This document shows positions 1-23,767 of a stretch of 34,430 nucleotides of DNA, one piece after another. The stretch is taken from NCBI GenBank assembly GCA_029856445.1, contig JAHQWY010000003.1, positions 1 through 34,430 on the forward strand, read 5' to 3'. The translations under genes and the position numbers were made by a program. Numbering within the stretch: the stretch's first letter is position 1; every line of letters starts with the position of its first letter. A model generated the notes under the pieces. It made no database searches. It saw nothing but the letters and a program-made list of their open reading frames with translations, and was not told where the DNA came from. Source of the DNA: Promethearchaeia archaeon. Lineage in GTDB: Archaea > Asgardarchaeota > Lokiarchaeia > Sigyniarchaeales > SOKP01.

Positions 1-32
1 TTCTAATATTAGTTTAAGATTTCATTATACGA

Positions 33-40
33 TTTATAAA
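33..40 (+). promoter_or_regulatory. putative TATA box of the tRNA-Glu gene
   Basis: TTTATAAA ending 35 nt before the tRNA 5' end; AT-rich background lowers specificity. Confidence 0.4.
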
Positions 41-74
41 AAAAACCGATTATGGAAACTCTTATAATAAATCC

Positions 75-177
75 GCTCCTATAGTGTAGTCCGGCCAAGC
101 AGTATTTATTATTTGAATATATACTTGAATGCTAGGCTTTCACCCTGGTGACCCGGGTTCAAATCCCGGTAGGAGCA
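75..177 (+). tRNA. tRNA-Glu(TTC) with a 28-nt intron at 24/25 (102-129)
   Basis: Acceptor GCTCCTA/TAGGAGC; anticodon arm CTAGG-CTTTCAC-CCTGG; T arm CCGGG-TTCAAAT-CCCGG; BHB with helix CAAG/CTTG and bulges CAG and AAT; CCA not encoded. Confidence 0.95.
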
Positions 178-268
178 CTATTTTATATAGAAAGTGTATT
201 TTTATAATGTTCATAAACTATATGTTATCTACAAATCTTAATAAAACAAAATTTTAAGGGAAAAAATG

Positions 269-373
269 CGCCCCCGGCATGGTTTTCTTCTTGTTTAGAG
301 GTTGAACAAAGAAATCGAACATGCGACCGCTCGGTTAACAGCCGAGTGCTCTACCTAGCTGAGCTACGGAGGC
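269..373 (-). tRNA. tRNA-Asn(GTT) with a 31-nt T-loop intron at 59/60 (283-313)
   Basis: Minus strand GCCTCCGTAGCTCAG...CTCGG-CTGTTAA-CCGAG...GCATG-TTCGAT|C-CATGC-CGGGGGC-G; the intron folds into a hairpin; relaxed BHB with one G-A mismatch in the central helix. Confidence 0.93.
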
Positions 374-472
374 TCAATTATTACCTTTTTTCGATATATA
401 ATTTTATTAAATATAATATTTAGCTTTTTCTTTATTACTTTACAAATTAGACATATTATGATTCTCTATATT

Positions 473-997
473 CTAACTCTGAGTTGCATAATATATTAGC
501 CATTTTGCCATGGCCTGGAAGGATTCATTTATATTTATATTTTCTTTCGAGGAACAGAATACACACTGGTTACATTTCGCTCTAATAGCATAATCATTAG
601 CAACTTCAAATTCCACTTCATGATCTTGGAGGTCCCATTTCATCCCCAATAGAATTATTGGGATGAATCCTGCTTTTTGACGTATGATCTTAAGCCATTC
701 TGGTATTTCTCTAAAAGTATCATAATCACTTATATCAAAACAAATAAAAGCGCCACTTGCTCCCTTACAATAATCAGGTAGGAGCTCACGAAAACGTTTT
801 TCACCCGCGAAATCCCATAATTGCATTTTAACTGCTTCTTTTGTGTCAAGAATTTCAGATTTGGTATGAAATCCTGCTCCTATTGTCATTTTATAACCTT
901 CTTCGAATTTACCTGTACAATATCGAGTAATCATTGCTGTTTTTCCTACTCCCCCCGCTCCTGCAACAATAACTTTAAATATCCATGAACTTTGCAT
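473..997 (-). CDS. Ras-superfamily (Rab-like) small GTPase
   Basis: G1 GAGGVGKT, G2 MTIG, G3 WDFAGE, G4 GMKWD, G5 CSSK; 174 aa; no C-terminal prenylation motif. Confidence 0.93.
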   Translation of the reverse strand: MQSSWIFKVIVAGAGGVGKTAMITRYCTGKFEEGYKMTIGAGFHTKSEILDTKEAVKMQLWDFAGEKRFRELLPDYCKGASGAFICFDISDYDTFREIPEWLKIIRQKAGFIPIILLGMKWDLQDHEVEFEVANDYAIRAKCNQCVFCSSKENININESFQAMAKWLIYYATQS

Positions 998-1287
998 TTT
1001 AGTTAATCACAGAAATATCACGTCATAAAGAATTAGCTTATTGATAAATAATAAAAATTTAGCCTTAAATATTTTTTTGAAAGTATTCGCATTGAAAAAA
1101 TCCAAAATAAAATTACATAAGATTGATCTAAAAAAAAACCTAATTTTTTAATGGTTTGAAGATTATAAATGAATTTACAGACACTGTTTTTAAATAACAT
1201 AAAGATATAAGCTAAAATAAAAAAGATTTTTATAAGATTTTGTTCTATTATTTTTTAGTACTGAATTTAATAAGTTTTAATTAAGAA

Positions 1288-1297
1288 AGGTTGTGAT
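1288..1297 (+). promoter_or_regulatory. Shine-Dalgarno-like motif of the aIF1 gene
   Basis: AGGTTGTGAT matches AGGAGGTGAT at 8/10 positions and ends 8 nt before ATT at 1306. Confidence 0.6.
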
Positions 1298-1305
1298 AAG
1301 AGAGT

Positions 1306-1626
1306 ATTAAAGACGACGACATTTGTCCATTATGTAGCTTTCCAAAAGAACTCTGTATTTGTGATAGTTTAAGTGCTGATGAACAACAAATAGTTATTTC
1401 TAACGATAGAAGAAAATGGGGGAGAGTTGTAACTGTAATTACTTTTGTTGGAGATTTTGATGTAAATTTAAAAAATATATTAACAAAAGCAAAAAAAAAA
1501 TGTGCTTCTGGGGGAACTGTAAGAGACAACGGTGTTGAGCTTCAAGGAGATCATCGCTTTAAAATGAAAAAATTATTAATCGATTTAGGGTTTCCTGAAG
1601 AAAATATTCTTATCCAAGGATCATAA
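1306..1626 (+). CDS. sui1: translation initiation factor aIF1/SUI1, probable ATT start (absent from ORF track)
   Basis: Hand translation: IKDDDICPLCSFPKELCICDSLSADEQQIVISNDRRKWGRVVTVITF...KKKCASGGTVRDNGVELQGDHRFKMKKLLIDLGF...IQGS*; CxxC-PKELCxC, GGTV and ELQGDHR are archaeal SUI1 motifs; in-frame TGA TAA at 1294-1299. Confidence 0.92.
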   Translation: MKDDDICPLCSFPKELCICDSLSADEQQIVISNDRRKWGRVVTVITFVGDFDVNLKNILTKAKKKCASGGTVRDNGVELQGDHRFKMKKLLIDLGFPEENILIQGS

Positions 1627-1703
1627 TTAACACAGTATTATTTTAAGAAAGCTATATATTAACGATTTATATATCTAAAACAAATTTTATTTTAGTAGGT
1701 TTT

Positions 1704-2144
1704 ATGGATTCAATAATTTATAAAGTAATTTTTAAAGCAATTCAGTATATGGAAAATAAAAATCTTACTTTAAATTTTAAGAATCTTGGTTTTAAAAAAC
1801 CAATCATTGTACCTTCTAGGTTTCTTCAGGAACTAAAAATCTTGAGTGAAAAATCTGAAAATATATTAATTTTTCAAAATATTGAAGAAGTTATAACAGT
1901 AGGAAATATTAACTCTAATGTAAATTATAATTACTACTTGATTATCTTATTTACGTTAAAATCAGGGAAAGACAAATACGGATATTTAATTGGAAATGTT
2001 AAAAATCTAGGTGATATAACTATAGGAATTTGGCCATTTAATCGAGAGGTTTCAGAATTAACTCCTGAAATTATTATTGAAAACTACAACAATATCATTA
2101 ACAATCCTAGTGACTATAGTAAAATTTGTCTTATTTCTCAATAA
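1704..2144 (+). CDS. hypothetical protein
   Basis: 146-aa ORF filling the gap between genes; no motif recognised. Confidence 0.65.
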   Translation: MDSIIYKVIFKAIQYMENKNLTLNFKNLGFKKPIIVPSRFLQELKILSEKSENILIFQNIEEVITVGNINSNVNYNYYLIILFTLKSGKDKYGYLIGNVKNLGDITIGIWPFNREVSELTPEIIIENYNNIINNPSDYSKICLISQ

Positions 2145-2173
2145 ATAAATTTGTTTTCTCAATCAGGTTTACA

Positions 2174-3112
2174 TTAAAATTTAAAACTAGGATCATGCTC
2201 TAATAAAAAATTTTTTAATTGACTTTTAATCGGCATCCCTGTTCTGGCTCCTAATTTCTGGATTTTTAAAGAGGCTGCAGCATTTGCATATTTGACTGAC
2301 TTTTCTAAATCCCATTTATGAATCCAATAAGCTACAGAAAAAGCACCATTAAATGTATCACCTGCCCCTGTTGTATCGATAATATCATCAACCTCAAATG
2401 TAGGCACTTCTTTCTGAAAATTTTCTGTAGTAACCAGTGCTCCCTTATTTCCTAAAGTTATGATGACAATAGGAATCCCTCTATTGATCAATTCATTAGC
2501 TGATTCTCTAGGGGTTTCACAATCTGTTATACTTTTAGCACCTTCAGCATTAGGAATTAGAACATCCGCATTCAATAAAATATGCTTTAAATTATTCCAT
2601 CCCTTTTGGGCAATTTGAGATTCCAAATCAATACTAATATTTACATCATATTCTTTTGCAATATTAATAGCTTTCTCTGCTATTTTAGAATGAATTATTG
2701 TAGTATGCAAAAGTTTTGATTTAGCAATATAGGATTCTGGTAAATCTGATAATGTTAACTTAGTAATTTGCATATGAGGTGATTGAATTATCGTTTTTTC
2801 ACCATTACAAATAAAAATAAAATTTACTGGAGTTTGTAATCCTGATTTCTTTAATGTAAATAATATATCCACTTTTTCTTTCTTAAAATCTTCTATTAAG
2901 AAATCTCCATAATGATCATTTCCAACAGCTCCAATAAAACCACAACTAACCCCTAAACGTGAAACTGCAACTAAATAATTTGCTGTTACGCCACCTGGAA
3001 AATAATGTTCACTTAAAGCATCTATTTTTTCATCTGGTTTAGGGAAATGTGGAATTTTGGAGACCCAATCAATGACAACTTCACCCAATCCAACTATATC
3101 TACTTTATTCAT
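2174..3112 (-). CDS. PfkB/ribokinase-family carbohydrate kinase
   Basis: N-terminal PGGVTAN and GAVGNDHYG; C-terminal DTTGAGDTFNG signature. Confidence 0.93.
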   Translation of the reverse strand: MNKVDIVGLGEVVIDWVSKIPHFPKPDEKIDALSEHYFPGGVTANYLVAVSRLGVSCGFIGAVGNDHYGDFLIEDFKKEKVDILFTLKKSGLQTPVNFIFICNGEKTIIQSPHMQITKLTLSDLPESYIAKSKLLHTTIIHSKIAEKAINIAKEYDVNISIDLESQIAQKGWNNLKHILLNADVLIPNAEGAKSITDCETPRESANELINRGIPIVIITLGNKGALVTTENFQKEVPTFEVDDIIDTTGAGDTFNGAFSVAYWIHKWDLEKSVKYANAAASLKIQKLGARTGMPIKSQLKNFLLEHDPSFKF

Positions 3113-3190: not shown

Positions 3191-4915
3191 CTAAGTTTCT
3201 ATAGTTTTCATTACTCTTTCTAATTCTTCATCAATGTCTAAATATTTGAAATCATACACCGAAATTTCATAAGAACTAGAATATTCACTAAATTTAGCTT
3301 TTCCCTTTATTATTATATCCTTACCTAGGAATTCAGAGGATTTTGTTTCTAAAAATTTTTCAAAATCTGGTGTTTCTCTAATTTGGACAAGTTTATTTGT
3401 TTCAACACCAAGAAGCTTCTCAGCTTTTTCTCCCATAAAGGTTGTTCTGATTGATCCATTACCATCATCGATTGTAAGATTAGTAATCATTCGAAATTCT
3501 GTTGTCTCTCTCGTGTCACAATCACAATTCTCTAGTTTTTTCATACATTTTGGACACGCTTCATAAATTGTTATGTTGTTAAGATCTCTAGCAATATAAC
3601 CCTTAATTTCTACAACCCCCGGGTTATTAATCGAATCAATTTTTATATAATTACCAGAAAAGGAAGTACCTTGACTTATTTTAGAAAAATCCATGATCTT
3701 GAGGTTTTCTATTTCTAAATCAATTAGATCTAGGGTAGAATCACTTATTGTAGAGATCTCATTTCTTTGGGAAAAGTTATTAAACCTTAATGAGACATTT
3801 TTTAACAACAATCCTTGACCGATTGATAATTTAGTTGAAAAATCTTCTGCCATATCTCGCCATAAGGTTACTCTAATCCAATTAGTATTATCACTAACAA
3901 TAAATCCTAATAAAGAAAGAATTTCACCCGATTTTGAAGTAATTTCTTTTAAATCATCAAGCGAAGTTATCACTCCTTTAAATGAGACAATACCATTAAT
4001 TTCTTGAAGTTTGTTAATATTCTTTACTAACCCTACTTCTATTTGAATGTCCTTTTGGATCTTTTTTATGATTGAGTATTTGGATGCATATAGATCAATA
4101 GTTCTAGAATCTAAAGAATTTAATCTTGGATTTAAATTTGAAATTGATATAACATCATTTACCTTTATAGATTCTAATTTTGTCGTGTCATCATTCCAAA
4201 ATGTTATTCGAATTGATCCTGTTGTATCTAATAAAGATAGGGAACTAACTTTTCCTAGTTCTCCATTTTTTCTCGTAAATTCCTTTATAGGTGATATTTG
4301 GATAACTTTTCCTTCCAATGATATTGACTTAAGATTTAAATTAACATCTTTGATATTTGTTAATTTAAATTTAATTTTAGGATATTTTTTATAATCTACA
4401 TCGTTAGGGGACAGGATAACTCCTCCGAATTTTCCTATATGAATTTCTTTATCTTCAAATTTTCCTTTTCTTACAGTTCCATTTACAATTTTAACCAATT
4501 CATTTTGTTGAAAATTATCTTTGTTAAATAAATCAACATGATCATCCCATAAGACAATTCGAATATCTCCTGTTGTATCATGTAATAGGAAAGACCCTAC
4601 ATAGCCAGTTCCTCCATCAACTTTATTAAATTTGTTTGCGTTATAAATTTCTTTTATTCTACCAATAATATTAATATTTTTCATATTGAATGTAATATCT
4701 GATATGAATATTTCAATATCATTCATTAAATCTTTATTTTCCTCTTTTACGTCAACGCCTAGCTCTCTAGCTATAACGAATAAGGCTCCTTCTTCTGAGA
4801 TTAAACCTTTTAATTCCTTCTTTTTATCTTCAACCATATCTTGTATTTCTTTTCTTGTTAAACCTGTACTTTCGATTATTTTATTAATATACGCCTCAGT
4901 TTTCATTTCGCTCAT
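3191..4915 (-). CDS. replication protein A large subunit (multiple OB folds plus Zn finger)
   Basis: Repeated OB motifs DTTGDIRIVLW, DTTGSIRITFW, DNTNWIRVTLW, DDGNGSIRTTFMG; YEACPKC...CDC Zn site in the last OB fold. Confidence 0.9.
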   Translation of the reverse strand: MSEMKTEAYINKIIESTGLTRKEIQDMVEDKKKELKGLISEEGALFVIARELGVDVKEENKDLMNDIEIFISDITFNMKNINIIGRIKEIYNANKFNKVDGGTGYVGSFLLHDTTGDIRIVLWDDHVDLFNKDNFQQNELVKIVNGTVRKGKFEDKEIHIGKFGGVILSPNDVDYKKYPKIKFKLTNIKDVNLNLKSISLEGKVIQISPIKEFTRKNGELGKVSSLSLLDTTGSIRITFWNDDTTKLESIKVNDVISISNLNPRLNSLDSRTIDLYASKYSIIKKIQKDIQIEVGLVKNINKLQEINGIVSFKGVITSLDDLKEITSKSGEILSLLGFIVSDNTNWIRVTLWRDMAEDFSTKLSIGQGLLLKNVSLRFNNFSQRNEISTISDSTLDLIDLEIENLKIMDFSKISQGTSFSGNYIKIDSINNPGVVEIKGYIARDLNNITIYEACPKCMKKLENCDCDTRETTEFRMITNLTIDDGNGSIRTTFMGEKAEKLLGVETNKLVQIRETPDFEKFLETKSSEFLGKDIIIKGKAKFSEYSSSYEISVYDFKYLDIDEELERVMKTIET

Positions 4916-23353: not shown

Positions 23354-23767
23354 TTATTTCTCTTTAACTTCTACTCTGGCTCCGCAAGCAGTACATTTTA
23401 AATAAAGTTTTTTACCCTCCCGTTGAATTTGGGTGTCTGGTTTTTTACAAATACTACATAATACATATGTTTTTGTATAATTTTCAATTAACTTGTTCAG
23501 TACTTGCTCTTTATATTGACCTTTTAGAAATAATTGTTGTCCTCTTATCTCCCCCATTGTTCCTGCGCTCTTTAGAAAAATGCCTAAAAAATGTCTTCTA
23601 TCTCTATTAAGAGTACTGATTATTTTATTGAAATTTGTAATAAATGTATTTCTACTTTCTATTCTAAGTTCTACTTTAGGAATTTCGAATCTTGAGGATT
23701 TTTTTACATTTTCTGGTATTTTTTCATAAGCTTCCTCTAATAAATCCTCATAATCATTTAAATCCAT
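23354..23767 (-). CDS. eif2b: translation initiation factor aIF-2 beta subunit
   Basis: YEDLL, RFEIP, YVLCSICKKPDT, CTACGA. Confidence 0.95.
   Translation of the reverse strand: MDLNDYEDLLEEAYEKIPENVKKSSRFEIPKVELRIESRNTFITNFNKIISTLNRDRRHFLGIFLKSAGTMGEIRGQQLFLKGQYKEQVLNKLIENYTKTYVLCSICKKPDTQIQREGKKLYLKCTACGARVEVKEK

Follow-up and report, generated by a model that had tools for sequence, protein, structure and literature searches.

Does an archaeon of the Lokiarchaeia begin its translation initiation factor aIF1, a protein of the SUI1 family, at AUU, and does the factor limit its own synthesis through that codon? The question arises from a 34,430-nt stretch of DNA (the window; contig JAHQWY010000003.1 of assembly GCA_029856445.1, Promethearchaeia archaeon), in which a preliminary description, made from the letters alone, had read an intact 106-amino-acid (aa) SUI1 frame closed upstream by TGA TAA at 1294-1299, lacking ATG, GTG or TTG before its conserved CxxC motif, and starting with a normal-length N terminus at ATT 1306 behind an element resembling a Shine-Dalgarno (SD) sequence. 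We find that AUU 1306 is very probably the start of aIF1 and that this weak codon is protected from replacement among relatives; whether it also carries a negative feedback by aIF1 is, in our judgment, an evenly balanced matter. The elements of the gene, in window positions, are as follows.

1220 to 1258, plus strand: conserved 39-nt block, read as a BRE/TATA-like (B recognition element and TATA box) promoter and the stretch to a predicted transcription start, from an 86-locus family alignment
1286 to 1296, plus strand: interrupted SD element AAAGGTTGTGA, from its conservation and its pairing with the 16S rRNA 3′ end
1294 to 1299, plus strand: in-frame stops TGA TAA, of which TGA sits within the SD and is kept in 46/46 genus loci
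1297 to 1305, plus strand: non-coding 9-nt spacer from GTGA to the start, with columns lacking codon periodicity and an extra in-frame TAG in several genomes
1306 to 1308, plus strand: ATT, inferred initiation codon (read as Met), from conservation in genus and family
1306 to 1626, plus strand: aIF1 (SUI1) coding sequence, 106 codons and TAA, from Pfam, NCBIfam, structure alignment and the ratio of nonsynonymous to synonymous substitution rates (dN/dS)
1324 to 1362, plus strand: N-terminal zinc knuckle, CPLC ... CIC, its four Cys invariant in a 15-sequence alignment across the class
1381 to 1596, plus strand: SUI1 domain, residues 26-97 (PF01253, E 3.3e-17, 63.2 bits against a cut-off of 25.5)

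The frame opens behind TGA 1294-1296 and TAA 1297-1299 with the codons GAG AGT ATT AAA GAC GAC GAC ATT TGT and ends at TAA 1624-1626, which gives 108 codons from stop to stop and 106 from ATT 1306. No ATG, GTG or TTG precedes the zinc-knuckle CxxC, the earliest canonical in-frame codon being a Met at codon 87 (ATT as codon 1), and a listing of open reading frames (ORFs) with ATG, GTG or TTG starts holds no plus-strand ORF of at least 40 aa at this locus. The SUI1 match and the absence of a canonical start before CxxC thus bear out the preliminary description of the frame. The protein also passes the NCBIfam model NF002096 (112.7 bits, cut-off 98, profile positions 2-101 of 102) and aligns end to end with Methanocaldococcus jannaschii aIF1 (4mo0_A; E 1.7e-25, query 5-103 against chain 3-101 of 102), a chain that is also present in the 30S initiation complexes 5jb3 and 5jbh. 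Counted from ATT 1306, the N terminus is two residues longer than that of the solved M. jannaschii protein, in line with the normal length claimed for it. It thus resembles aIF1 of the M. jannaschii and Pyrococcus abyssi type, with a zinc knuckle, a SUI1 domain and about 100 aa; passages of PMC6237735 describe such a zinc module for most archaeal aIF1. An identity with YciH, the bacterial SUI1 homologue, was rejected, as Escherichia coli YciH (1d1r) aligns only at residues 37-95 (E 4.8e-07), the fit to aIF1 is end to end, the archaeal zinc knuckle is present and the host is an Asgard archaeon; the name “YciH” borne by relatives at NCBI is a label carried by model NF002096 rather than a fit.

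Against 11 orthologues, dN/dS is 0.04-0.09 at synonymous divergence (dS) of 0.8-2.3, and no further SUI1 copy was found in the genome, where protein and class-wide profile searches each return one match; the genome is a fragmented metagenome-assembled genome (MAG) of 505 contigs, 94.4% complete with 6.4% contamination. Judged from its sequence, aIF1 is an intact, single-copy gene, functional and under purifying selection. In such a MAG, given its 505 contigs and its contamination, one might suspect that the start codon was misread in sequencing, or that the gene is a pseudogene whose role has passed to a second copy. We consider this extremely improbable, since contigs from the runs X1, X2 and X3 agree with 1150-1319 at every position and no variant is reported ahead of 1320 (X1 and X2 may be the same data set, and one of the three runs may be the source sample), since the same layout and codon recur in 46 other assemblies, and since both the low dN/dS and the lack of another SUI1 copy speak against decay.

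The codon at 1306 is the same throughout the genus. Matches to aIF1 were found in 48 of 54 genomes, 46 with fully readable loci, one with a 5′ fragment (G006) and one cut by a contig end; ATT stands at the aligned codon in 47/47 readable loci, with in-frame stops just upstream. We then extended the comparison to the class, where 161 genomes were searched, 138 matched and 85 further loci were taken. Of the 112 family loci, 104 lack any canonical codon (ATG, GTG or TTG) in the interval from upstream stop to CxxC and carry ATT (100), ATC (3) or ATA (1); in the remaining 8, a GTG falls within the SD motif and ATT or ATA comes after it in the expected position. ATG or TTG is the start in 0 of the 112. 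The pattern of variation points to the same codon: the six bases ahead of ATT vary without codon periodicity and, by column counts, include a TAG stop in several genomes, while downstream of ATT variation sits at third positions, so that the coding-type pattern begins exactly at ATT. Moreover, ATTAAA is invariant in 46/46 genus loci, and in the same loci the Ile codon five codons past ATT has T, A or C as its third base (38, 6 and 2 loci). Silent sites have thus been turned over (dS 0.8-2.3), yet ATTAAA and the SD are unchanged, which indicates that they are protected from change. ATT 1306, proposed earlier as the start, is by far the best candidate, and we hold with high confidence, from comparison among relatives, that a gene for a fidelity factor here starts at a near-cognate codon. 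This weak start appears to resist replacement by AUG although ATT to ATG is a single substitution, as judged from the 104 family loci (8 being ambiguous) and from five control genes that do exchange such codons, described below.

Two observations concern atypical aIF1 loci. In G006 the gene appears split, with pieces at about 1032005 and at 1385113 of G006:C1 (L060, L023), 353 kb apart; we reject this as biology, because both pieces adjoin runs of N and mark a scaffold artefact. Some family genomes hold a second aIF1 with 55-66% identity, also with an SD, 8 nt and ATT or ATA:

second aIF1 copies: G062:C58, G053:C2, G046:C101, G007:C18 and genomes of g22 and g15 (L056-L059, L104, L105, L108, L118, L128)

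Eight of these were tallied apart from the 112 family loci, and a ninth (G007), with two in-frame TAA, was left out. Seven of the eight have a GTG in the SD motif, two of them with an upstream ATG in addition, and one has no canonical codon. These copies could be true paralogues or contamination from a related genus; the present genome (G000) has no second aIF1 of this kind.

The start is preceded by a conserved ribosome-binding site. ATT 1306 stands 9 nt past the interrupted SD AGGTTGTGA, and AGGTTGTGAT, at 1288-1297, ends 8 nt before it. The sequence GGTTGTGA is invariant in 46/46 genus loci, and AAAGGTTGTGA in 43/43 loci of other genera, bar one column at 41/43. As the 16S rRNA is absent from this MAG, its 3′ end, GGATCACCTCC, was taken from two genomes of the same genus; AGG and GTGA(T) of AAAGGTTGTGA can base-pair with it, unlike the two intervening T's. 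The SD-like element of the preliminary description is therefore real, and more conserved than synonymous sites. Across this genome (30.7% G+C) a G-rich peak lies at −12 to −8 before starts, a strong SD precedes only about 14% of unambiguous genes, in keeping with what passages of PMC7531240 note for a cultured Lokiarchaeon, and spacers from GTGA to the start of 6, 7, 8, 9 and 10 nt occur in 65, 35, 12, 23 and 14 cases among 1,763 unambiguous ORFs, in a selection that favors multiples of three. The 9-nt spacer of aIF1 is thus in range and not optimal, the genome optimum being 6 nt.

This region also holds two other ways in which the frame could be entered. The first is an upstream mini-ORF: either GTG 1293 would open a 5-codon frame whose stop, TAA 1308-1310, overlaps ATT and would feed aIF1 by reinitiation or a +1 shift, or an in-frame TTG-TGA start-stop at 1291-1296 would do so. 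GTG 1293 and TTG 1291 lie within the invariant GGTTGTGA, the mini-ORF is open throughout the genus with its stop overlapping ATT, and termination-reinitiation at overlapping genes is known in archaea (PMC10666635). However, AAAGG directly adjoins both codons, which leaves them without a suitably spaced SD, and in the three genomes with ATC the overlapping TAA is gone although all other features are retained. In addition, an AT-rich spacer may well contain five open codons by chance, and in the 17 other genes with AUA, AUU, AUC (together AUH) or CUG starts in this genome, presented below, the start follows a plain GGTGA by about 6 nt without any mini-ORF of this kind, which argues for direct AUH initiation as the general rule here. 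We regard a mini-ORF as very unlikely.

The second is a start elsewhere, at ATT 1321 directly before the first Cys or on a leaderless transcript, to which we give still slightly less weight. One NCBI protein of a relative (P0008) begins MCPLCS, and upstream of 1306, at a distance of about 26 nt, there is a TATA-like run (1276-1283). Against this, codons 2-5 (K D D D/E) conserve their residues while varying at third positions and are therefore translated, ATT 1321 is separated from the SD by 24 nt and has a third base that may be T, A or C, and the run at 1276-1283 is not conserved in the genus, whereas the SD is.

With AUU 1306 taken as the start, we asked how unusual such a codon is in this genome. 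ORFs of at least 150 codons, anchored by a strong SD at the measured spacing and with an upstream stop within 8 codons, were scanned, non-canonical codons being accepted only if no canonical codon occurred in the following 30 codons. Among the 152 ORFs found, the starts are ATG (95), TTG (32), GTG (8), ATA (8), ATT (6), ATC (2) and CTG (1); other codon matches, all but a GGA on C237, are the codon directly after an ATT, ATA, ATC or CTG already found. The Pfam domains of 10 out of 10 tested weak-start genes start at residues 3-38, long before any canonical codon appears (43-163), which argues that AUH and CUG are working start codons here. They appear to be so in at least 17 of the 152 strictly SD-led long ORFs besides aIF1, and the idea that a weak start is a singular oddity of aIF1 has to be given up. 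The genes include those for IMPDH, a succinyl-CoA-synthetase-beta-like protein, an ADP-forming acetyl-CoA-synthetase-like protein, an aldo-keto reductase and a carboxylesterase, and an AN1 zinc-finger gene. Their locations, and the start codons of five of them among relatives, are:

17 weak-start genes: G000 contigs C15, C217, C277, C395, C23, C262, C320, C435, C46, C102, C130, C208, C438, C463, C3, C183 and C220 (loci L263-L279)
IMPDH, 28 loci: ATG 22, ATT 2, ATA 1, GTG 1, TTG 2
IMPDH within the genus, 10 loci: ATG 6, ATT 2, ATA 1, GTG 1
succinyl-CoA-synthetase-beta-like, 13 loci: ATT 7, ATC 1, ATA 1, TTG 2, ATG 2 (five codon types)
epimerase, 11 loci: ATG 7, ATT 2, ATA 1, TTG 1
aldo-keto reductase, 15 loci: ATG 10, TTG 2, ATC 1, with 2 misaligned
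AN1 zinc-finger gene, 30 loci: CTG 19, GTG 5, TTG 3, GTA 2, ATA 1

All five control genes swap their weak start with ATG, GTG or TTG among close relatives, and aIF1 never does. What appears distinctive of aIF1 is therefore not its weak start as such, but that this start never reverts to a canonical codon as the weak starts of other genes do. In two AN1 orthologues, L369 (G018) and L375 (G067), GTA, which is two bases from ATG, stands six nt after GGTGA where relatives have CTG, GTG or TTG; these may reflect a still more permissive start, or a start shifted elsewhere.

We next compared aIF1 starts beyond the family, those of other Asgard and non-Asgard loci being assigned by eye from SD and position. 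The non-Asgard sample comprises Bathyarchaeia, Nezhaarchaeales, Thermoplasmatota, DPANN, Methanobacteriaceae, Halobacteriota and others.

Sister families of the same order, 15 loci: TTG 6, ATG 5, GTG 2, ATA 2
Helarchaeota-type families, 7 loci: TTG 3, and ATA without a canonical option 4
22 other Asgard families, 35 loci: ATG in most, GTG 6, and no canonical codon in 5 (ATA 3, CTG 2)
Non-Asgard archaea, 70 loci: ATG 68, GTG 2, usually behind a strong SD

Near-cognate aIF1 starts thus look like an Asgard trait, fixed in this family. Canonical archaeal aIF1 genes differ from the present one in starting at ATG or GTG, usually 2-4 codons before CxxC, behind a strong SD of the GGAGG type.

Upstream of the ribosome-binding site, the 86 family loci share the nearly invariant block at 1220-1258, with variable flanks and, between block and SD, about 30 variable nt with indels. 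The block opens with a purine run and TTTTTATA at 1227-1234, which is BRE/TATA-like, and from the usual BRE/TATA spacing transcription would start near 1257/1258. The 3′ 25 nt of the block are unique in the genome. The stretch between a TATA-like run and the predicted start is usually free to vary and is here almost invariant, which could mean that a regulator uses it as an operator. As for the leader, its folding together with the first codons gives energies no better than those of shuffled sequences (z +0.3 to +1.7), for which reason we propose no structural switch, and an Rfam search of 1-3000 returned two tRNA-like matches only, none of them in the aIF1 leader.

Based on these features, we hypothesized that aIF1, which in archaea destabilizes complexes assembled at incorrect start codons, controls its own synthesis at initiation. 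Its mRNA would be transcribed from the conserved promoter near 1220-1235, carry a leader of about 50 nt and be translated from AUU 1306 through an initiation region that would be weak in three ways, with a near-cognate start, an SD with two mismatches and a 9-nt spacer in place of the optimal 6; all three features are held constant by selection across relatives. When aIF1 is scarce, 30S complexes would accept AUU more readily and more aIF1 would be made; when it is plentiful, its own AUU start would be rejected, and the same set-point would govern the other genes starting at AUA, AUU, AUC or CUG. The biochemical ground for this model comes from relatives: passages of PMC4705826 report that Sulfolobus solfataricus aIF1 lets the 30S complex bind AUG mRNA and not AUU mRNA in vitro, and 30S binding with rejection of non-cognate starts is known for S. 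solfataricus and P. abyssi aIF1 from parts of PMC4705826 and PMC6237735. The present protein would share both activities. A change in the loop-1 aromatic residue (W in this aIF1, F in M. jannaschii, Y32 in P. abyssi) was considered as a cause of relaxed stringency and dropped, the aromatic character being kept. If this aIF1 rejects AUU, negative feedback would most likely be working. The case for feedback draws on the S. solfataricus experiments and on the precedents of infC and eIF1 discussed below; we put its chances, given the AUU start, at about one in two, and the explanation that we favor overall, an aIF1 made from AUU with a conserved weak initiation region and negative feedback, stands at similarly even odds.

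The strongest alternative accepts the AUU start and dispenses with feedback: in a lineage with a relaxed start repertoire, AUU and a weak SD would simply fix a low rate that suits aIF1, and aIF1 here would not discriminate appreciably against AUU. We judge this somewhat less probable than an even chance, and the present data are compatible with feedback as well as with a low constitutive rate. The 17 other SD-led genes at ATA (8), ATT (6), ATC (2) and CTG (1) in the same genome are in its favor, as is the free interchange of weak starts with ATG, GTG and TTG from one species to another, a sign that they differ modestly in function. However, an equivalence of AUU and AUG predicts some ATT to ATG changes among the 112 family loci, at dS up to about 2, and 0 were seen; the SD of aIF1, with its two mismatches and its long spacer, is frozen as well; and aIF1 rejects AUU in the only archaeal system tested, according to passages of PMC4705826.

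Several further results weigh against a feedback specific to aIF1. Weak starts that are this common (17/152) must be well tolerated by the machinery, so that AUU may set a low constitutive level, and other Lokiarchaeial families, including sister families, have TTG, GTG or ATG on aIF1, so that AUU is not required for its function. The contrast with other genes rests on five controls, whose relatives are not independent and some of whose families hold paralogues. Stable starts are not peculiar to aIF1 either, as shown by its two nearest neighbors:

473 to 997, minus strand: Ras-family small GTPase gene (L034), divergent from aIF1, with its ATG kept in 36/37 genus genomes
1704 to 2144, plus strand: 146-aa ORF without a Pfam match, with its ATG kept in 37/37 genus genomes

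Lastly, the assignment of a promoter at 1220-1258 is weak: a genome-wide scan for TATA-like runs gave only a faint rise at −32 to −28, for genes without an SD, and the 15-nt BRE/TATA pattern, allowing up to 2 mismatches, occurs at 373 places with no sharp distance to starts.

The proposed feedback has two known counterparts, in which the stringency of start selection feeds back on the factor that sets it: bacterial IF3, which limits its own synthesis through the AUU start of infC (passages of PMC4705826), and eukaryotic eIF1, which does so through a start in poor context (passages of PMC4705826 and PMC6237735). As with infC, a fidelity-factor gene here begins with AUU behind an SD, low levels of the factor would raise its own translation, and the weak codon of aIF1 appears evolutionarily protected from becoming AUG. 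In contrast to infC, the two factors are unrelated and have different folds (parts of PMC4705826), the infC feedback was shown genetically whereas that of aIF1 is inferred, and AUH starts in this archaeon serve many genes, not a handful. With eIF1, aIF1 shares a homologous SUI1 fold, the role of rejecting poor starts and a start that would be disfavored by the factor itself (parts of PMC4705826 and PMC6237735). Eukaryotes, however, scan and weaken AUG by its context, whereas here the codon is not AUG, an SD precedes it and the weakness would lie in codon, SD and long spacer; no AUG in a poor Kozak context met by a scanning ribosome is involved, and the likeness is one of logic only. Any continuity between the eIF1 and aIF1 circuits would be hypothetical, most other Asgard families sampled having ATG on aIF1. 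A third comparison is offered by Haloferax volcanii, for which passages of PMC7261190 report from ribosome profiling that about 30% of putative alternative start sites are near-cognate; these are evidence, as the present loci are, that archaeal ribosomes can initiate at such codons. Unlike the sites in H. volcanii, which are alternative, putative and, in those passages, set aside by the authors, the starts described here are the sole starts of conserved housekeeping genes. In the passages returned by full-text literature searches (supplements outside scope), we found no report of a near-cognate start or self-control of archaeal aIF1, nor of routine AUH or CUG starts in Asgard archaea.

A conserved AUU on aIF1 is thus a concrete archaeal case open to testing, found on the homologue of eIF1 and in the closest lineage to eukaryotes. 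The genome-wide weak starts may matter as much, with housekeeping genes swapping AUA, AUU, AUC or CUG with AUG between species, and start-codon fidelity in these archaea seems unlike the textbook archaeal picture. A broader reading, which we advance tentatively and consider possible rather than likely, is that of a relaxed start regime with AUA, AUU, AUC, CUG and perhaps GUA at a tenth or more of SD-led genes, in which the AUU of aIF1 would be the homeostat or the cause; this would be an archaeal, SUI1-based counterpart of infC and a possible forerunner of eIF1 self-control. Such a regime would hold in this Lokiarchaeial family and, patchily, in other Asgard lineages, the aIF1 AUU having been frozen for the whole life of the family, and a self-limited low level of aIF1 would set the permissiveness of initiation genome-wide. 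For annotation, housekeeping starts at AUA, AUU, AUC and CUG imply that gene callers restricted to ATG, GTG and TTG truncate or lose a noticeable share of Asgard proteins. For aIF1 itself, the expectation that standard callers would miss or truncate the gene was right in part: public aIF1 proteins of 65-90 aa from JGI, ENA and Logan are truncations, whereas the NCBI pipeline PGAP already begins the aIF1 of relatives at ATT (MKDDD...).

The remaining observations concern other parts of the window and genome. The two tRNA-like Rfam matches lie at 107-171 (plus strand) and 322-373 (minus strand), one just above and one just below the Rfam threshold. Run on the whole MAG, aragorn found 11-12 tRNAs and no tRNA-Met; the tRNA genes of this MAG are either unassembled or unusual, for example intron-bearing. 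Two other initiation-factor genes start at ATG, that for aIF1A (G000:C484) and that for aIF2-beta, which lies in the same window as aIF1 and is listed here with the other neighbors.

2174 to 3112, minus strand: PfkB-family kinase
3191 to 4915, minus strand: RPA-like protein with several OB folds
23375 to 23710, minus strand: aIF2-beta, with a plain ATG start and no obvious SD

The Ras-family GTPase gene has TGTGAT with the spacing of aIF1, followed by ATG; in G069 the alignment points to ATA, one codon farther upstream and preceded by GGTGG, as the start.

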